64,000 nt of DNA from Candidatus Doudnabacteria bacterium. Its GTDB lineage: Bacteria > Patescibacteriota > Doudnabacteria > UBA920. Shown here piece by piece: positions 1,943 to 29,453 of this stretch (position 1 is the stretch's first letter; every line of letters starts with the position of its first letter). A program made the position numbers and the translations under genes. A model generated the notes under the pieces. That model ran no database searches, was not told the origin of the DNA, and was given only the letters and a program-made list of their open reading frames with translations. Location: the NCBI GenBank assembly GCA_038203095.1, contig JBBREH010000001.1, positions 431-64,430 on the forward strand. The letters are read 5' to 3'.

Positions 1943-2080
1943 AAGGATATTATATCACGATGGGCATTTTGATGTATAATTGGATTGACAAGATTGACAT
2001 GATTTAAAAGAATGGCAAGAATTTACTGCAGTCTAATTATGACAATCTTTTAATTCATTTAATTCTTGTTCAATCTTTTT

Positions 2081-3007
2081 ATGCCTGAACTGCCAGAAGT
2101 TCAAACTATAGTTAGCGAGCTTAATAGGAAATTAAAAAACCGAACTATAAAGTCGGTTGATGTTTTCGCGCCCAAAATGGTTGGGGTGGGTTCGGCGACG
2201 CTCTCTCCTAAAAGAACAGCCTCCGCCCAAACAGTAGAAAAATTTAAAATGCTGATAACTGGCAAAAGGTTTTTATCAGTACGCCGTCGCGCCAAGCTTT
2301 TAATTTTTAAGTTGTCGGGAGAGCTTTTTATGCTTGTTCATCTTAAAATGACCGGACAATTTATTTTTGAAGATAAAGTTTTGCGGGGCAAAACTTTAGG
2401 GAAATATCGGCTTTTGAATAAACTTAATGCGCCGTTAGTTCAGCTACCTTGCAAGCATACGCATGTGATTTTTAATTTTGTCGATCAGACAAAATTATAT
2501 TTTAACGATGTCCGCAAGTTCGGTTATTTAAAGTTGGTGCGCGTTGATGAAATATCCTCTGTTCGTGAACTAAACGAATACGGTCCTGAGCCGTTGGGTA
2601 AATATTTTACCGCCGGACACTTTTTGACGGCCGTCAAAAAGTGTCCGGACAGAAAAATCAAACAAATAATTATGGATAATAAAATTGTGGTGGGGATAGG
2701 CAATATTTACAGCGACGAAATTTTATTTCATGCCGGGGTCCGGCCGACGCGCTTGGTTAAATTACTGTCCGATGTTGAAATTAGCAGTATTTATAAATGG
2801 ATAAAGCCGGTATTAATAAAAGGCATAAAAGCCAAAGGTTCCAGCGTTGGCGACTTTGTCCGTACCGACGGCACCTGGGGCCAAATGGGCAAATTTCACT
2901 TTGTCTACGGACGTAGGGGGCAGAAATGCAAAAAATGTGGTACGACCATCGAATCAGTTAAGCTGGGCGGTCACACAGCTAGTTATTGCCCAAGATGTCA
3001 AGTGTAG
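2081..3007 (+). CDS. fpg: Formamidopyrimidine-DNA glycosylase (Fpg/Nei family)
   Basis: Starts MPELPEV (catalytic Pro2 after Met removal), so the true start is the ATG at 2081 rather than the ORF-track start. C-terminal zinc finger CPRCQ. Confidence 0.8.
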   Translation: MPELPEVQTIVSELNRKLKNRTIKSVDVFAPKMVGVGSATLSPKRTASAQTVEKFKMLITGKRFLSVRRRAKLLIFKLSGELFMLVHLKMTGQFIFEDKVLRGKTLGKYRLLNKLNAPLVQLPCKHTHVIFNFVDQTKLYFNDVRKFGYLKLVRVDEISSVRELNEYGPEPLGKYFTAGHFLTAVKKCPDRKIKQIIMDNKIVVGIGNIYSDEILFHAGVRPTRLVKLLSDVEISSIYKWIKPVLIKGIKAKGSSVGDFVRTDGTWGQMGKFHFVYGRRGQKCKKCGTTIESVKLGGHTASYCPRCQV

Positions 3008-3359: not shown

Positions 3360-3578
3360 ATGGAAACTGCTCAAAACCCATCAGGGCAAAAACAACCAAT
3401 GTCGCAGGATCAAATGCTCCTGGAAATTTACGAAAACACGCGGAAGACTAAGAATTATATGAAGTGGCAGTTGTATATTACTGTTGTGCTGATAGTTTTA
3501 CCGCTTCTGGCCGCGGTGTTCATTATTCCTATGGCCTTTAGCAGTTTAAGCAGTACGTATGGAAGTTTGTTACAGTAA
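3360..3578 (+). CDS. Hypothetical small membrane protein
   Basis: 72-aa ORF with a C-terminal TM helix. Confidence 0.3.
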   Translation: METAQNPSGQKQPMSQDQMLLEIYENTRKTKNYMKWQLYITVVLIVLPLLAAVFIIPMAFSSLSSTYGSLLQ

Positions 3579-8136: not shown

Positions 8137-8169
8137 AAAATCCTGGCTCCGAAAGGAGCCAGGATTTTG
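8137..8169 (+). terminator. Rho-independent terminator after groEL
   Basis: AAATCCTGGCTCC-GAAA-GGAGCCAGGATTTT followed by a T-run. Confidence 0.7.
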
Positions 8170-8178
8170 TAATATAAT

Positions 8179-8397
8179 GTGCTTATGGGGAATTATGCAG
8201 AATCAGGTTCAGAATTTGGATCCGAACTAAACAATACTGAATTGTCGGATTTTATTATGACTTTTGGTTTTGATGTAAGACTTACTGAAACTTTAAATAG
8301 GCTTTTAGCTGATGACCGGGAAAACGTTTGGAGAGGTCGTTTATTAAGGATTTACAAGTTAGGGCAGGAAGAAAAGGCCTTAGAAAGCGATTTATAG
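8179..8397 (+). CDS. Hypothetical small protein
   Basis: 72-aa ORF; weak support. Confidence 0.25.
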   Translation: MLMGNYAESGSEFGSELNNTELSDFIMTFGFDVRLTETLNRLLADDRENVWRGRLLRIYKLGQEEKALESDL

Positions 8398-9342: not shown

Positions 9343-9376
9343 CCCTCCCCTTGAGGGGGAGGGCTAGGGAGGGGTG
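9343..9376. repeat. G/C-rich palindromic element (intergenic copy)
   Basis: CCCTCCCC-TTGA-GGGGGAGGGCTAGGGAGGGGTG, reverse-complement match to 21724..21765. Confidence 0.65.
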
Positions 9377-9896: not shown

Positions 9897-10037
9897 ATGG
9901 AGTTTGAAATCTCCTACAGGTTGTCAAAATTCCTTTTTGCCATCGGGGTGAGTTTAGCCTCGGTCATAATTTTTGCGGCTTTCTTAGCTGCGTTAATTTG
10001 GCTGACAGGTGGCAAAAACAAAGGGGATGATAAGTAA
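9897..10037 (+). CDS. Hypothetical small membrane protein (46 aa), tandem to the previous ORF
   Basis: AGGAGG RBS at 9883; single TM helix. Below the ORF-track size cutoff. Confidence 0.25.
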   Translation: MEFEISYRLSKFLFAIGVSLASVIIFAAFLAALIWLTGGKNKGDDK

Positions 10038-10291
10038 AGGCAGACAGCAAAGTCTTTATACAAATCATCCCCCTCACACTTTTTTGTTTACTCAACCGCT
10101 TGCGAGGGTTAATTTAAATTTAGATTACAAGATCTAAACCTAAATTAACCTCCTGCCTCGCCGGCGGCTGAGTTGACGAAAACAGCGGTTTTAGCTATAA
10201 TTTGTGAGTTAAATTATTATTTAAATTTACCCTTCGACTCGCTCGCCTTAAAGGCGAGCTCGCTCAGGGTAAAATTTTCAAGGAAAATTTT

Positions 10292-10627: not shown

Positions 10628-11062
10628 ATGGCCAACAGACATTTATCCCGCACCATTGCCATGCAGTCCCTCTTTGAGTGGGATTTTAACGGACGCAAGG
10701 AAGCTTTGAATGATATTGTAAAAAATCAGGTCAAGGAAGTTGCCGGGGCATCGGACGACACCGCTTTTATTTTTGAACTCGCCCACGGCGTGGAGAAAAA
10801 TTTAGTTGCCATAGATGAAATAATTGTTAAGCACGCGCCCGAATGGCCTATGAACCAAGTGCCACCCGTAGACAGGAATGTTTTGCGTTTGGGTGTTTAT
10901 GAATTAATGTTTTTAAAACAGGTTCCGCCTAAGGTGGCCATTAACGAAGCCGTGGAAATTGGTAAAACTTTTGGGGGTGAAAGTTCCGGCAAGTTCGTTA
11001 ACGGAGTGTTAGGGGCTTTGTATAAGGAGCTGGGGCTGGAGGAAGATAGGCAGGTCGGATGA
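10628..11062 (+). CDS. nusB: Transcription antitermination factor NusB
   Basis: [17 protein letters not shown] signature; 144 aa. Confidence 0.85.
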
Positions 11063-11585: not shown

Positions 11586-11616
11586 TAAAAATTGTTAGCT
11601 AAATAAAGAATATCAA

Positions 11617-11647
11617 AAAAGCCTCTTTTCATATGGAGGCTTTTTTG
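11617..11647 (+). terminator. Rho-independent terminator after the HU gene
   Basis: AAAGCCTC...GAGGCTTTTTTG. Confidence 0.7.
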
Positions 11648-11678
11648 TTATAATCCAGCAGGATAAAAAAATATTTTT

Positions 11679-11753
11679 TGCGAGTATCGTATAATGGTTA
11701 TTATCTCAGTTTTCCAAACTGATGATGCGGGTTCGATTCCCGCTACTCGCTCC
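11679..11753 (+). tRNA. tRNA-Gly (anticodon TCC), CCA encoded
   Basis: Acceptor GCGAGTA/TACTCGC; anticodon stem TCAGT/ACTGA with loop TTTCCAA; T-arm GCGGG-TTCGATT-CCCGC. Confidence 0.8.
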
Positions 11754-17684: not shown

Positions 17685-17957
17685 TTCGCCGCGACTTCCC
17701 TCCTAAGTCCGCTTAAGGCGGGCGAAAGAGGGGAGAATACAAACAAGGTGAAGGAGCTTAAGAATATGACTAAGGGGAAAAAGTAATAATAAGCCTACAA
17801 TGGGCATCATTGCATATGTAATGATGCCCATTGTATCTGGTCCAATTAATTTTGAATTATTCAGGAATTAAGTCTATAATGACTATAAATCTTCTTGAAA
17901 AAAGCCATTAAGTGAGCAGTGTTTTAAAAGGTAGTGTAATTAATTATATTATTTATT

Positions 17958-20279: not shown

Positions 20280-20374
20280 CTGGAAAAATAATAATAACAA
20301 TAAAAATAACTATTACTACAAGCATCTTTGCTAAAGCAAAGATGCTTGTTTGTTGTTGTGCTACAATATAACAG

Positions 20375-22084
20375 ATGCAAAAAATGGTGATTAAGGTTGT
20401 AAAGATTATTATTGCCACAGCAATTTTTGCCTGGTTTGGTCTATTTTTGGCGCATAAAATAGATTTAACCACCGCGGATTTAGGCCGGCATATTGTTAAT
20501 GGATCGATAATTTTACACGGATCTTGGGCAGAGAAGTGGGCCGTGCTTAATACCAATTTTTATTCTTATACCTTACCTAATCAGCCATTTGTTAACCATC
20601 ACTGGGGGAGTGGAGTGGTTTTTTATTTAATTTTTTTGGCATTTGGATTTGCGGGGTTGTCTGTATTTTATGTAGGTTTGGGATTGGCGACGTTGTGGTT
20701 ATTTTTTGACGTAGCCAGAAGAGCGAGCAATTTTTGGATATCGTCTGCTGTGACAATTTCTCTAATCCCGTTGCTTTCGGCTCGCGCCGAAGTTCGTCCG
20801 GAAATGTTTACCTATTTTTTTACGGGAGTATTTTTTTGGGTGCTGTGGAAATCGCGGAATGACGCGGAACTTAACGCTGAAAGACGCGGAAGCTATAAGT
20901 TGCTCTGGATTTTGCCTATAATTGTTCTGCTTTGGGTTAATTTGCATATTGGTTTTGTGTTTGGGTTTTTGGTGCTGGGGGCGTTTGGATTGGAAGAAAT
21001 AATAAGGAATTTTCCATTCCGAATGCATCTGAGGAATCTGTTAAATCCAGGAACAGACAGATCCCTCCGTTCGCCCTCGGATGCACTCGGTCTTGGTTGG
21101 GATGGCAAATTACAAAAACTGATTATCATATCGGCGCTTTGCATTCTCGCAGGCTTAATAAATCCTTTTGGCTATAAACTGTTAATTTACCCCGCGCAAA
21201 TTTTTAAGAATTACGGTTATTTGATTGTAGAAAATCAATCCATCCGTTTTTTGGAGCGTCTAAATTTTGTTCAAGGCCAACACTTTTTACTTTTTAAACT
21301 GGCCGTGGCCGGGGTCATTATCAGTTTTATCGGAGTTGCCATAAGGTGGTGGAGAAAGATTGATATCACGATGTTGGTATTAGTCATAATCACAGCCTTT
21401 ATGGCTTATTTGGGAATTCGTAATTTTCCGTCTTTCGCGTTTTTCGCCTTGCCGGCCGCGGCCGGAAATTTGTATTTAATTAAACCGCAAAATCTTCATC
21501 GCGCGTACAAGTATTCGCTGTCAGTTATTCTTATTTTTATTGTAATTATTTGCGCCCAATCCCAGTACCAAACTTTTATGGAAATCAGGCCTGTTTTAGG
21601 TTTTGGTGTTTTGCCCGGTGTTAACCAGTCGGCTGATTTTTACAAGGCTAATAATCTTAAAGGTCCTATATTTAACAATTATGACGTTGGCGGATATTTA
21701 ATTTATCATTTATATCAAAAAAATCACCCCCTCCTAGCCTCCCCCATCAAGGGGGAGGAAGGGGGCACGGACACAAAGCTCTTTGTGGACAACAGGCCGG
21801 AAGCTTATACAACTGATTTTTTTGAAAATTCCTACAAACTGCCGCAAACGGACAGCCAAAAATGGCAGGAACTTGATAACCGGTATAATTTTAACTCCAT
21901 CTTTTTTTCCCACCGCGACTATACCCCGTGGGGTCAGGCGTTTTTAATTTCGCGAATACAGGATCCCACTTGGGCGCCGGTGTTTGTAGACACGTACAAT
22001 ATAATCTTTGTAAAAAGAAACCCACAGAACGCGGATTTAATTAAAAAATATGAACTACCAAAAAGTATGTTTGGCATTAAATAA
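20375..22084 (+). CDS. Polytopic membrane protein, candidate GT-C-type glycosyltransferase
   Basis: At least 12 predicted TM helices, immediately upstream of a Dpm1-like GT2. Contains two in-frame repeat-element insertions (21024..21091, 21724..21765). Confidence 0.45.
   Translation: MQKMVIKVVKIIIATAIFAWFGLFLAHKIDLTTADLGRHIVNGSIILHGSWAEKWAVLNTNFYSYTLPNQPFVNHHWGSGVVFYLIFLAFGFAGLSVFYVGLGLATLWLFFDVARRASNFWISSAVTISLIPLLSARAEVRPEMFTYFFTGVFFWVLWKSRNDAELNAERRGSYKLLWILPIIVLLWVNLHIGFVFGFLVLGAFGLEEIIRNFPFRMHLRNLLNPGTDRSLRSPSDALGLGWDGKLQKLIIISALCILAGLINPFGYKLLIYPAQIFKNYGYLIVENQSIRFLERLNFVQGQHFLLFKLAVAGVIISFIGVAIRWWRKIDITMLVLVIITAFMAYLGIRNFPSFAFFALPAAAGNLYLIKPQNLHRAYKYSLSVILIFIVIICAQSQYQTFMEIRPVLGFGVLPGVNQSADFYKANNLKGPIFNNYDVGGYLIYHLYQKNHPLLASPIKGEEGGTDTKLFVDNRPEAYTTDFFENSYKLPQTDSQKWQELDNRYNFNSIFFSHRDYTPWGQAFLISRIQDPTWAPVFVDTYNIIFVKRNPQNADLIKKYELPKSMFGIK
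21724..21765. repeat. G/C-rich palindromic element (in-frame inside the membrane-protein CDS, opposite orientation)
   Basis: CACCCCCTCCTAGCCTCCCCCATCAAGGGGGAGGAAGGGGG; encodes HPLLASPIKGEEGG. Confidence 0.65.
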
Positions 22085-23905: not shown

Positions 23906-24898
23906 ATGGATAGAAATTTAGCTTTGGAATTTGTGCGGGTAACTGAGGCGGCGGCTATTGCAGCTAGTAAGTGGATAGGCAAGGGTGACGGTAAAAAGGC
24001 TGATGGCGCGGCAGTAGATGAAATGCGGTCGCGTTTTAATCAGATAGATTTTAAAGGCGTGGTGGTAATTGGTGAGGGGCAGAAAGACGAGGCGCCGGAA
24101 CTTTACACCGGGGAGAAGGTGGGACTTGGATGGAAAAACTCCAACCACCCCGGCCTTTCAGGCCACCCCTCCTTGAAAAGGAGGGGAGACTCCGTGTTTG
24201 ACCTTGCTGTTGACCCGCTTGAATGTACCGACAGCGTGGCTTATGGGCGTTATAATGCGATTGCGGTTATTGCGGCCGGAGCGCGGGGCTCGCTTTTAAG
24301 TGCGCCCGATACTTATATGGAAAAGTTGGCGGCCGGGCCAAAGGCTGCTAAAGTAATTAAAATGGGTGCGCCGGTTAAGCTAAACATTGAACGTACGGCC
24401 AAGGCTCTTGGTAAAAAAGTTGGGGATGTTACGGTGTGCATAATGGATAGAGAGCGCCATAAAGATTTAATTGGTCAGGTAAGAAAAATAGGCGCCAGAG
24501 TGCGGCTAATTACAGACGGCGACGTAGCGGGCGGGATAGCAACGTGTATGCCAGAATCGGGGATAGACCTGCTTATGGGCATTGGCGCTTCCGCAGAGGC
24601 AGTTTTGGCCGCCACAGCCATTAAAATTCTGGGTGGGCAAATATTCGCTCGCTTTAACCCAATGAAAGAAGCTCATCATCAATTGTTAAAAAAAGCCGGC
24701 CTTAACGACAAAAAAATTTACTCTGTAAACGACCTGGCCAAAGGTCAAACCCTAACCTTTACCGCCACAGGCATTATTGACGGCCCACTGCTTCAAGGGG
24801 TGAGGGTTGAGGGTAGCTACATTATAACCCATTCGATAGTAATCCGCGGTCAGAGCGGAACAATAAGATATATAACAACGCATCATAAGGAGAAATAG
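23906..24898 (+). CDS. glpX: Fructose-1,6-bisphosphatase class II (GlpX)
   Basis: Collinear with GlpX (LALEFVRVTEAAAIAA...GEGQKDEAPELYTGEKVG...DLAVDP). Carries an extra ~17 aa encoded by a palindromic element at 24149..24190. Confidence 0.85.
   Translation: MDRNLALEFVRVTEAAAIAASKWIGKGDGKKADGAAVDEMRSRFNQIDFKGVVVIGEGQKDEAPELYTGEKVGLGWKNSNHPGLSGHPSLKRRGDSVFDLAVDPLECTDSVAYGRYNAIAVIAAGARGSLLSAPDTYMEKLAAGPKAAKVIKMGAPVKLNIERTAKALGKKVGDVTVCIMDRERHKDLIGQVRKIGARVRLITDGDVAGGIATCMPESGIDLLMGIGASAEAVLAATAIKILGGQIFARFNPMKEAHHQLLKKAGLNDKKIYSVNDLAKGQTLTFTATGIIDGPLLQGVRVEGSYIITHSIVIRGQSGTIRYITTHHKEK
24149..24190. repeat. G/C-rich double hairpin inserted in-frame in glpX
   Basis: GGCC-TTTCA-GGCC followed by CCCCTCCTT-GAAA-AGGAGGGG; encodes PGLSGHPSLKRRGD, which is absent from E. 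coli GlpX at that point. Confidence 0.6.
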
Positions 24899-27668: not shown

Positions 27669-28505
27669 ATGACAACAAAAATCTTTCTCGACTCAGGCGA
27701 CCCCGTTGAAACCAAACAAGCTTTAAAGTTGCTTGGGTTTTTGGACGGGCAAACTACTAATCCGTCGTTAATTGCTAAAAATCCGGCCACCAGCGGAAAA
27801 AAATTTACTGAAGATGAACTGCTAAAATTTTACCGTGGTATAGTTACAGAAGTCTCGTCGCTCATTCCAAAAGGCAGTGTTTCAATAGAAGTTTATGCGG
27901 ACAAAAATATGTTGGCAAATGAAATGCTGGCGCAGGGTAGGGAGTTTAATACTTGGATTCCGAACGCCCATATTAAATATCCGACTACGACCGAAGGTTT
28001 AAAGGCAGCTGAAATAAGCGTGAAAGAGGGAATGAGGGTAAATATGACGCTAGTTTTTAGTCAGGAGCAGGCTGCTGCAGTTTATGCCGCAACAAAAGGA
28101 GCATTGCGCGGACAAGTTTATTTGTCGCCATTCGTGGGTAGGCTGGATGACCGTGGGGAGAATGGCATGGATTTTGTTTCTAACGTCGTAAAAATGTATG
28201 AACAAGGCGACGGACATGTGGAAATTTTGTCAGCTTCAATTAGGTCAAGCGAACATATGAGAAAGGCGATTGAACAGGGTAGTGATATTATTACGGCACC
28301 GCTAAAAGTTTTAAAAGAGTGGGTAGAGGCGGGATCTTCCTCCTCCCCTCGCCAGGGGAGGATGCCCATAGGACAGGAGAGTTTGCTGCCAATTCTTTAT
28401 CAGGATATCAGCTTAAACAAGCCCTGGCAGGAATATAATTTACAGCATAATTTAACTAATGCCGGTTTGGAAAAATTTACAAGTGACTGGAATTCCTTAT
28501 TATAA
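27669..28505 (+). CDS. tal: Transaldolase (Fsa/TalC-type)
   Basis: IFLDSGDP...TTNPSL motifs. ATG at 27669. C-terminal region carries an extra segment that includes the palindromic element at 28342..28361. Confidence 0.8.
   Translation: MTTKIFLDSGDPVETKQALKLLGFLDGQTTNPSLIAKNPATSGKKFTEDELLKFYRGIVTEVSSLIPKGSVSIEVYADKNMLANEMLAQGREFNTWIPNAHIKYPTTTEGLKAAEISVKEGMRVNMTLVFSQEQAAAVYAATKGALRGQVYLSPFVGRLDDRGENGMDFVSNVVKMYEQGDGHVEILSASIRSSEHMRKAIEQGSDIITAPLKVLKEWVEAGSSSSPRQGRMPIGQESLLPILYQDISLNKPWQEYNLQHNLTNAGLEKFTSDWNSLL
28342..28361. repeat. G/C-rich hairpin inserted in-frame in the transaldolase gene
   Basis: CCTCCCC-TCGCCA-GGGGAGG within a C-terminal extra segment (SSSSPRQGRMPIG). Confidence 0.55.
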
Positions 28506-28513
28506 CATAAAAT

Positions 28514-29248
28514 CCACTTGGAAGAGGGGACACCTCTTCCAAGTGGGACTAATCTATTAATAAAGCTTGAATTTGTTTTTGTTTTTCTATTAGAGGACCG
28601 CTTTCTTCTACAAATTTTTTATAATCGTTAACCGTCTTAAATTTATCCATAATAACTCGCTTATCACAAAGGCCATCGTTTCTTTTTTCAATGTAATCCG
28701 AATAACTACTAAAGGCATATTCATCCGGAGTTTTTACAATCCCGGCCACAGTTGGGTTTTGATGAATATAGGCCGAAAGCCAAGTTAAATAAGATTCATT
28801 TTCTACCGGTATGGCTTTGAATGCTCCTTGAAATAAATGGCCCACATGGTCGTATTTTTTTTGAAAGTAGACTGCGTAGCCGGTGCATAGTTTTTGGATC
28901 AGTTTGCTAATTTTAATTTCGTTGTTTTGTCTTATTAATAAATGAAAATGGTTAGGCATAAGACAATAGCAGATTAAAGAAAATGCATCTGTAGGCAATT
29001 GCTTTCTTTTGTATTTTATATCAAGAGAGCTTGGGCTAACTTCCAATTCATTTTCTGGGAATAAATTTTCTCTTAATCGATGAATAAAAATTCCATAATC
29101 TTGGGGATCAAAAAAAATATCATTTTTACCATTACCTCGATTAAAGACATGATAATAATTTCCCGCAGTAAAAGTTTTGTAATCACGATAACGCATAATC
29201 ATATTATACCATAAAATTAACTTGGAAGAGGGGACACCTCTTCCAGTT
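28514..29248. mobile_element. IS200/IS605-like or RAYT-like unit: Y1 transposase flanked by near-identical palindromic hairpins
   Basis: CCACTTGGAAGAGG-GGACA-CCTCTTCCAAGTGG at 28514..28547 and AACTTGGAAGAGG-GGACA-CCTCTTCCAGTT at 29219..29248; 40 nt from tRNA-Pro. Confidence 0.6.
28549..29202 (-). CDS. HUH-Y1 transposase (IS200-like / REP-associated tyrosine transposase-like)
   Basis: YHVFNRGN..IFFDPQDY; HUH motif in LMPNHFHLLI; downstream Tyr (YIHQNP). Probable start at M68 of the track ORF, because the upstream part overlaps tRNA-Pro. Confidence 0.65.
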   Translation of the reverse strand: MIMRYRDYKTFTAGNYYHVFNRGNGKNDIFFDPQDYGIFIHRLRENLFPENELEVSPSSLDIKYKRKQLPTDAFSLICYCLMPNHFHLLIRQNNEIKISKLIQKLCTGYAVYFQKKYDHVGHLFQGAFKAIPVENESYLTWLSAYIHQNPTVAGIVKTPDEYAFSSYSDYIEKRNDGLCDKRVIMDKFKTVNDYKKFVEESGPLIEKQKQIQALLID

Positions 29249-29288
29249 GTGCAAGTTGGTTGGAAATGGTACACTTTATCAAGTATTT

Positions 29289-29362
29289 CGGGCTGTAGTA
29301 TACCGGTAGTACGTCTGCTTTGGGAGCAGATAGACTGGGTTCGATTCCCAGCAGCCCGACCA
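29289..29362 (+). tRNA. tRNA-Pro (anticodon TGG), CCA encoded
   Basis: Acceptor CGGGCTG/CAGCCCG; anticodon stem TCTGC/GCAGA with loop TTTGGGA; T-arm CTGGG-TTCGATT-CCCAG. Confidence 0.8.
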
Positions 29363-29424
29363 TGAGCCGCTCTCAGTCTAAGGCGAATTCGGGTTGAAAG
29401 CACGACGATTCAACCAAAATCTTT

Positions 29425-29453
29425 TTGACAAATCAACAGCCTTATATTATAAT
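29425..29453 (+). promoter_or_regulatory. Perfect-consensus sigma70 promoter (TTGACA-N17-TATAAT)
   Basis: TTGACA at 29425..29430, TATAAT at 29448..29453; about 550 nt upstream of the large surface-protein gene. Confidence 0.55.

Follow-up and report, generated by a model that had tools for sequence, protein, structure and literature searches.

The window analyzed here, a 64,000-nt stretch of a Candidatus Doudnabacteria genome (GCA_038203095.1, contig JBBREH010000001.1, positions 431 to 64,430), carries beside a tRNA-Pro gene a gene for a Y1/HUH protein that is enclosed by two short palindromes. We conclude that this locus is probably a REPtron-like unit, representing a Patescibacteria-specific branch of the RAYT proteins (TnpA-REP, class 2 of the TnpA-Y1 enzymes), in which a single-copy gene for an HUH/Y1 single-strand-DNA nuclease-ligase has a cognate repeat on either side, both in direct orientation. 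The protein class is already known; the repeat and its arrangement set this branch apart.

Profile matches, motifs, and predicted fold support the assignment of the protein as a Y1/HUH enzyme of the RAYT type. In the search proposed by an earlier interpretation made without databases (the sequence-only reading), it matches Pfam Y1_Tnp (PF01797) at 44.6 bits (cut-off 23; E = 1.9e-11). Its sole NCBIfam match is REP_Tyr_transpos (NF047646; 46.1 bits, equivalog cut-off 80), and no IS200 model is among its NCBIfam matches at E <= 1. The HUH (NHFHLL) and Y1 features described by the sequence-only reading are present. The HUH motif is N82-H83-F84-H85, the equivalent of the W motif F122-Q123, the catalytic tyrosine motif Y143-I-H-Q-N-P148, and the SS motif S163-S164; H83, H85, Y143, N147, P148, and S164 are invariant across 34 homologues. 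An AlphaFold2 model built on the homologue alignment (pLDDT 84.9, with loop 51-70 as the low-confidence exception) has a TnpA-type fold and places Y143 within a predicted helix (134-150). Its best Foldseek match in the PDB is 4ER8, E. coli TnpA-REP bound to a REP (repetitive extragenic palindromic) hairpin, with a TM score of 0.70 on the target, followed by the TnpA proteins of ISDra2, IS200, and IS608; the match probability is 1.00 for 4ER8, 2XMA, 2F4F, 2EC2, and 2A6M. Phmmer of the window protein against PDB sequences gave no match, and a 34-sequence profile reached 4ER8 at E = 0.11, together with a spurious Bep match; in that profile alignment, F122-Q123 falls on W94-Q95 of TnpA-REP. No second Pfam domain was found at E <= 1, neither a helix-turn-helix (HTH) nor a DnaA_C-like C-terminal domain, and residues 165-214 are modeled as helices only. 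Homologues are abundant (143 clusters at 50% identity with E <= 1e-30, about 9,900 with E <= 1e-10), and automated annotation pipelines already call relatives "RayT."

In the TnpA-Y1 classification of Quentin et al. 2018 (PMC6006769), Y---NP defines class 2, the RAYT side, whereas subclass 1.1 (IS200) is marked by Y---Q and H[VI]H in proteins of ~150 aa. The window protein has the class 2 Y---NP. Its NHFH, FQ, and SS are forms of subclass 2.1 (NH[YF]H, FQ or W[EQ], Y[IV]HLNP, and SS; the TIRYT proteins, Bertels group 1), and its YIHQNP is the form given for subclass 2.6 (YIH[QN]NP).

The sequence-only reading had the gene bounded by two near-identical hairpins, each with a 14-bp stem and a GGACA loop. 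Both palindromes are indeed present, with a common loop and an identical 25-nt core, CTTGGAAGAGGGGACACCTCTTCCA, for which the chance expectation from shuffles is 0.00; a 14-bp stem is found in the downstream hairpin only. That hairpin (-16.6 kcal/mol when folded as DNA, z = -8.5, equaled by none of 200 shuffles) starts 3 nt past the Y1 stop codon, between the convergent Y1 and transaldolase genes, in direct orientation and with the loop of the upstream copy. The upstream hairpin has a perfect stem of 9 bp, which a 1-nt bulge extends to 12 bp (z = -3.6), and fills the -35 region of the putative Y1 promoter inside the 92-nt gap that separates the Y1 gene from tRNA-Pro. Both hairpins are terminator-like on the minus strand in a consensus scan, and Rfam holds no family matching them. 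Both also contain GGGGACAC, an instance of the terminal inverted repeat (TIR) motif GGGGWSAS, in direct copies, where other clades have GGGCACC, GGGCATC, and similar sequences. No further copy of CTTGGAAGAGGGGACACCTCTTCCA occurs in the window, even at 4 mismatches.

What is repeated extends beyond the hairpin. In the ~48-nt unit, the hairpin GGAAGAGG-TGTCC-CCTCTTCC is followed, ~6 nt on, by a tail made up of a T-run and an extended -10 box (TGnTATAAT); past each of the two hairpins, this tail reads ATTTTATG(G/T)TATAAT on the minus strand (29203-29217 and 28499-28513). A consensus promoter scan demands a -35 hexamer, so extended -10 boxes of this kind go unflagged. The downstream tail overlaps the last two codons and the stop of the transaldolase gene (TTA TTA TAA, 28497-28505), whereas the upstream tail ends 6 nt before the Y1 start codon, and the Y1 transcript, if initiated from this -10 box, would be leaderless. 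The start itself is the ATG at 29196 (MRYRDYK...), since homologues of ~215 aa all begin there, with M-[RKN]-x-R-D-Y-K. The mechanically called open reading frame (ORF; 28549-29403, 284 aa, GTG start), which is also the public gene call P0001, crosses the tRNA-Pro gene antisense; the recorded 284-aa protein is over-extended, and the true product has 215 aa. The sequence-only reading was right that the start is internal, and its length of 218 aa is corrected accordingly.

Across the family, the flanking palindromes are supported as cognate repeats of the Y1 enzyme. A metagenome scan yielded 80 loci with homologues at 45-73% identity, 75 of which have both flanks. An identical word of >= 13 nt, chosen solely for being common to both sides, was found between the flanks (150 nt each side) of 63 of these 75 loci (median 20), as compared with 14 of 222 cross-locus controls. 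The common word was centered on a perfect hairpin in 51 of 67 loci, as compared with 72 of 1320 control words. The hairpins differ by clade (TGGAAGAGG-TGTCC, CAAGGG-TGC, ACAATG-GCCGT, CAAAGA-CCG, CAGAAGG-TGC, and more), mostly with a GG-NNN-CC top. Among 79 loci, the flanking copies were direct in 30, inverted doublets (long, REPIN-like palindromes) in 30, and inverted in 7, with none in 12; inverted doublets also occur in L001 and L008 (L numbers denote stretches from other genomes). For the relation between protein and hairpin, only binned and adjacent-DNA comparisons are informative: in loci with 62-90% identical proteins, the hairpin-centered 23 nt are 0.78 identical, as compared with 0.53 for the adjacent 23 nt.

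The tail behaves differently from the hairpin, being kept across clades with unrelated hairpins. An extended -10 box lies within 40 nt of the Y1 start in 31 of 79 loci, at a spacing of exactly 6 nt in 21 of those, which suggests that leaderless Y1 transcripts are a feature of the family. In L034, in which hairpins at 9945-9975 and 10655-10680 were compared, the upstream loop is flipped (GAA versus TTC) although both tails point in the same direction; the hairpin is thus able to invert without its tail. In at least 17 of 63 loci, none of them in the clade of the window, a cognate hairpin also lies in-frame within the Y1 gene itself, at codons 48-60 in the low-confidence loop. Examples are L032 (~10150-10170) and L035/L043 (~10145-10165); the insertion encodes, for instance, QEGAPLA, and doublets are found in L045 and L073.

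The repeat is also dispersed away from its gene. Genome-wide counts refer to sister Doudnabacteria-like genomes of the Candidate Phyla Radiation (CPR), the source organism being represented by the 64-kb window. A scan of 185,579 species genomes with a 19-nt core returned 30 stretches, of which six (L002, L005, L012, L013, L022, and L030) were excluded as chance matches in GC-rich or Bacteroidetes genomes. The excluded matches lie mostly inside long ORFs of GC-rich genomes; the one in L022 (Proteiniphilum, 3513-3531) is a terminator-like aaaaag...cttttt hairpin past a gene and was likewise taken as chance. The remaining stretches are from Doudnabacteria-like CPR genomes, several with 4-8 exact-core copies each, so that the hairpin, with no extra copy in the window, is not unique to this locus as the sequence-only reading had allowed it might be. 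All CPR copies share the invariant core GGAAGAGG-TGTCC-CCTCTTCC and, beyond some six free bases, the conserved tail ATTTTATGGTATAATAAAT. They align in register, with an outer stem that is variable yet complementary (ctg/cag, ttg/caa, aaaaag/cttttt, atagactg/cagtctat, and cacttg/caagtg). In 27 aligned copies, nothing 5' of the stem is conserved beyond TG on the gene strand, and the GT[AG]G guide tetranucleotide is absent from the hairpin foot; on the other strand, the 5' side of the hairpin is the ATTATACCATAAAAT tail.

Solo copies occupy short intergenic gaps beside unrelated housekeeping genes, which, as read from translations, include those of HisRS, ArgRS, ThrRS, GatB, CTP synthase, GAPDH, DnaJ, and L32. 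Typically, the tail ends 0-6 nt from the stop codon of an opposite-strand gene and the hairpin end is turned toward the next gene's promoter, giving the order stop codon, tail, hairpin, next promoter; Di Nocera et al. 2013 (PMC3733652) describe a matching usual position for REPs. The strand that runs from hairpin to tail is the C-rich strand in 27 of 29 copies, a bias consistent with activity on only one of the two DNA strands at the replication fork. At the 3' flank of tRNA-Pro, a unit is present in L018, L020, and L041 and absent from the window, L001, and L034. In the gap before the rpmF promoter, L007 and L019 carry a unit, and the window has an unrelated AT-rich hairpin. The other loci contain 8 extra sites in 309 kb, or ~2.6 per 100 kb. 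From this distribution, we infer that the Y1 enzyme mobilizes the repeats.

Whether the gene itself moves is a separate matter. The sequence-only reading treated the 735-bp unit as IS200-like, and an active IS200-type element would carry its subterminal hairpins along as a whole, via a single-stranded circle, and would have landed between tRNA-Pro and transaldolase. The size near that of IS200, the Y1 fold with HUH and tyrosine, the direct hairpins at both ends, and a second Y1 gene in tandem in L039 (4700-4807, directly past the 3' unit) are all in keeping with such an element. In IS200, the left-end hairpin also terminates transcription upstream of the promoter that serves the transposase, an order that the upstream hairpin and promoter recall. 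However, the gene is present once in the window, its 73%-identical orthologue occupies one place on a 949-kb contig, and nearly every homologue cluster at 90% identity is confined to a single contig. Its position is also constant: the order tRNA-Pro / Y1 / transaldolase / LOG-like / aldolase / glpX / metK is kept in three genomes at 67-73% protein identity, the tRNA-Pro arrangement of the window recurs in L001, L034, L018, L020, L036, L037, and L041, and a more distant clade (54-58% identity) has another but internally conserved position, TrmB / Y1 / UvrB. The protein has the class 2 motifs (Y---NP, NHFH) in place of the Y---Q and H[VI]H of subclass 1.1 and is 215 rather than ~150 aa long; NCBIfam offers no IS200 match; and the repeats have dispersed on their own, as solo 48-nt units that lack the gene. 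The size agreement is a coincidence of a 648-bp gene and two ~45-nt repeats. Because the gene is single-copy, syntenic at 67-73% identity, and of class 2 in its motifs, it is not a jumping IS200, and we regard an active IS200-type element as very unlikely. The locus is best read as a domesticated, vertically inherited RAYT-type locus, and annotation should leave Y1 genes of this kind out of the tally of active IS200 elements.

This inheritance pattern is that of RAYTs, which are single-copy and vertically inherited, unlike insertion sequences (Bertels et al. 2017, PMC5581495). In genomes with several RAYTs, each paralogue has its own hairpin type (Quentin et al., PMC6006769). The 949-kb genome likewise has a second Y1 paralogue (L008, 5640-6302), 47% identical, with its own different doublet hairpin, AAAGGGGCATCCTTT. 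In L049, two diverged tandem Y1 genes (165-779 and 865-1524) have one common hairpin, with loops flipped.

An explanation to which we concede some weight, although we think it unlikely, is that the repeats are purely cis-regulatory, as terminators fused to promoters or as operators for a transcription factor, and that the Y1 protein is unrelated to them or is a regulator that binds the hairpin without cutting. The terminator-like character of both hairpins on the minus strand, the consensus extended -10 tail 6 nt before the ATG, and the retention of the tail across clades with differing hairpins, as expected of a sigma-factor site, agree with it. In some clades, moreover, the downstream unit directly precedes the next co-directional gene, and the layout of hairpin, T-run, extended -10 box, and ATG 6-7 nt on, apparently at leaderless genes, recurs in the window with unrelated hairpins (8137-8185 and 20318-20377), including a version before tRNA-Gly (11610-11680). 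Terminators, however, need not share an identical 21-nt core among many sites and between species, and it is not apparent from this explanation why the two sides of one gene should match in 63 of 75 loci. Most solo units are antisense to both neighbors, with the -10 box directed toward the 3' end of a gene; cognate hairpins lie in-frame within the gene in at least 17 loci; and the invariant catalytic H, H, and Y argue for retained nuclease chemistry. That two similar palindromes flank an ORF by chance or through misassembly has in its favor the small copy number in the window, two and nothing else. This explanation has a negligible probability given that zero matches are expected in shuffles and that the arrangement recurs in independent assemblies from different studies.

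Several observations weigh against the REPtron-like interpretation. The canonical 5' GT[AG]G guide tetranucleotide is missing, the REP_Tyr_transpos score lies below the equivalog cut-off, and the sequence profile reaches 4ER8 only at the marginal E value given above. The flanking copies share one orientation, whereas those of classical REPtrons are inverted, and their number (2 in the 64-kb window, both at the gene) is far below that of classical REP/REPIN populations. Over 54 loci, protein identity and hairpin identity were not significantly correlated in a Mantel-type test (rho 0.03), the hairpin being common only above ~70% protein identity (0.86 versus a baseline of 0.54). The strand bias cannot be separated from gene orientation, and the copies are not independent, since some occupy orthologous sites. 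The layout of hairpin, extended -10 box, and leaderless ATG is a generic one in this genome, and part of the unit is perhaps ordinary intergenic architecture. Finally, mobility is deduced from the distribution of the repeats, and neither the tRNA-Pro 3' flank nor the region upstream of rpmF provided a transposition event, a clean-bordered empty site, or an excision junction; insertion borders are unreadable at these two sites because the spacers are too diverged between genomes.

If the REPtron-like interpretation holds, a mechanism can be proposed by analogy. The TnpA proteins of the TnpA-REP, IS608, and ISDra2 systems bind a hairpin on single-stranded DNA and cut and join beside it. The Y1 enzyme of the window may similarly recognize its hairpin on single-stranded DNA, for example the lagging-strand template, and cut and join next to it, as do E. 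coli TnpA-REP and the IS608 and ISDra2 enzymes; such reactions would create, move, or maintain solo units and inverted doublets. The hairpin would then be the enzyme-specific part of the unit, and the tail is best read as a putative sigma-factor site, that is, a promoter, because it is conserved between clades with unrelated hairpins. In the upstream unit, the hairpin and T-run would insulate the Y1 gene from read-through, the extended -10 box would drive a leaderless Y1 mRNA, and the putative enzyme site at the -35 position of its own gene would make autoregulation possible. A more far-reaching proposal, which we put forward as a speculation with poor odds, is that the 48-nt unit is a portable cassette of insulator hairpin and extended -10 box, copied around streamlined CPR genomes by the domesticated Y1 enzyme, where it would set transcript ends and (antisense or leaderless) starts and would be self-regulating via the -35 copy and, in other clades, the in-frame copy. 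Were this so, CPR RAYTs would be a host-integrated system for placing promoter and terminator modules, more than a relic transposase.

Among known systems, the RAYT/TnpA-REP group (E. coli YafM, 4ER8; Pseudomonas REPIN-RAYT; PMC6006769, PMC5581495) is similar in its Y1/HUH fold, with 4ER8 as the best structural match, in Y---NP, single copy, and vertical inheritance, in having its own hairpin repeat bracket the gene with one hairpin type per paralogue, and in intergenic solo and inverted-doublet copies just past stop codons with a strand bias. The window system departs from this group in lacking the 5' GT[AG]G, in having a handful to tens of copies rather than hundreds, in the direct flanking copies of its clade, and in a unit that carries a T-run and extended -10 box. 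Its protein has FQ for WQ/WE and a 50-aa helical C-terminal extension, and scores below the NCBIfam equivalog cut-off. It resides in a CPR bacterium, and the published RAYT surveys examined do not cover that group.

TIRYT proteins and TIRtrons (TnpA-Y1 subclass 2.1, Bertels group 1; Di Nocera et al. 2013, PMC3733652) share NH[YF]H, FQ, and SS, as listed in PMC6006769, with the window protein. Their flanking repeats are low to moderate in abundance, with self-complementary and dimeric examples, and they have a published TIR motif, GGGGWSAS, that is matched in the window hairpin by GGGGACAC. The window protein differs in having YIHQNP instead of Y[IV]HLNP and, by Pfam, no HTH/DnaA_C-like C-terminal domain, and its flanks are short direct hairpins, not the long terminal inverted repeats of TIRtrons. 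Quentin et al. found no REP-like structures for subclass 2.1 (PMC6006769). In subclass 2.4, the cyanobacterial and Bacteroidetes RAYTs, REPs are inserted in the transposase's own gene, which they regard as a peculiarity of that subclass (PMC6006769). The in-frame cognate hairpins in at least 17 of 63 homologous loci, in a low-confidence surface loop, are comparable, but in CPR genomes the in-gene hairpin precedes HUH (aa 48-60) rather than lying between HUH and the tyrosine, is absent from the window clade, and lacks GT[AG]G.

The IS200/IS605 TnpA proteins (IS200, IS608, ISDra2; subclass 1.1) resemble the window system in fold, in subterminal hairpins on one strand, and in a unit near 700 bp. 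IS200 differs in its Y---Q, H[VI]H, and ~150 aa and is multi-copy at ~99% identity, often with tnpB, of which the window locus has none. The Correia elements of Neisseria are TIR-bounded miniature inverted-repeat transposable elements with outward promoters and without a dedicated Y1 enzyme. The analogy with them would be functional only, as a short dispersed hairpin repeat that brings a putative -10 box wherever it is placed.

To our knowledge, RAYT/REP systems have been studied almost solely in Proteobacteria and a few other phyla, and we found no account of them in Patescibacteria in the searchable literature. New relative to known RAYTs are the lack of GT[AG]G, the low copy number, the direct flanks, the fusion of the hairpin to an extended -10 box, the in-frame copies before HUH in sister clades, and a score below the RAYT equivalog cut-off. 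RAYT logic, namely a single-copy Y1 enzyme, one cognate hairpin family, and vertical inheritance, runs through a large Patescibacteria family. Because CPR genomes are ~1 Mb in size with almost no spare DNA, the retention of a RAYT system in them speaks for a system that is either useful or very difficult to shed. The hairpin fused to a consensus extended -10 box and the in-frame copies in the gene of the enzyme offer concrete, testable links between a RAYT-type repeat and transcription.

Table 1. Features of the Y1 locus, in window coordinates.
Feature	Position	Strand	Description	Evidence
Y1/HUH (RAYT-like) gene	28549..29196	minus	215 aa + stop	translation, Pfam, homologue alignment, AlphaFold2 model
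Downstream cognate hairpin	28514..28546	minus	perfect 14-bp stem; plus-strand loop GGACA	DNA fold and shuffles
Downstream tail ATTTTATGTTATAAT	28499..28513	minus	antisense into transaldolase	
Upstream cognate hairpin	29219..29248	minus	loop GGACA as in downstream hairpin; core 29223-29245, gene strand TGGAAGAGG TGTCC CCTCTTCCA	
Upstream tail ATTTTATGGTATAAT	29203..29217	minus	T-run and extended -10 box (TGgTATAAT); ends 6 nt before ATG 29196	
tRNA-Pro(tgg)	29289..29362	plus	syntenic partner of the window Y1 clade; outside the unit	ARAGORN; Rfam tRNA, 63.5 bits

The sequence-only reading described tRNA-Pro as convergent with the Y1 gene; as the strands in Table 1 indicate, the two are divergent, with their 5' ends facing. 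The transaldolase gene, which is convergent with the Y1 gene downstream, ends at 28505. Just past tRNA-Pro and its small terminator-like hairpin (GGTTGAA...TTCAACC), the plus strand has a perfect promoter, TTGACA-17-TATAAT (29425-29453), which is kept in L001, L018, L020, and L034.

The window also contains G/C hairpins within genes, at 9343-9363 (reverse strand), 21738-21758 (within 21722-21758), 24166-24186, and 28341-28362, and the sequence-only reading had proposed that a RAYT-type enzyme could mobilize such palindromes. These are a separate family and not copies of the Y1 hairpin, to which, in the comparison suggested there, they are unrelated in sequence, both arms and flanks being different. 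Their pyrimidine arm comes first (CCTCCCC...GGGGAGG), and they have their own conserved flank, CACCCCCTCC-TAG-CC... The family form is CACCCC(C)TCC-TAG-CC(C)TCCCCC-loop-GGGGGAGG, and several members lie inside ORFs, including a 569-aa ORF of the window. They recur in sister genomes (L001 14587, L040 8204, and L032 8267), in L001 and probably L040 apparently within glpX, judging by position. The transaldolase palindrome at 28341-28362 was considered as a clean insertion and rejected, because the stretch around it is variable and differs from the orthologue by a net 4 aa. In other clades, however, it is the cognate hairpin that sits inside a gene, that of the Y1 enzyme itself.

Two further palindromes resemble repeats of other Y1 loci. 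An intergenic inverted doublet at 17796-17835, TACAATGGGCATCATTGCAT/ATGTAATGATGCCCATTGTA, is of the type that flanks the Y1 genes of the L051/L053 clade (2 mismatches) and is also found in L007 (7168-7205). As the window has no second Y1 gene, the doublet is a REPIN-like orphan and hints at a second paralogue elsewhere in the genome. A perfect 36-nt palindrome at 2613-2648, CCGGACACTTTTTGACGG/CCGTCAAAAAGTGTCCGG, lies within the ORF at 2066-3007, and a near-identical one is found beside a Y1-type unit in L024 (6955-6986).

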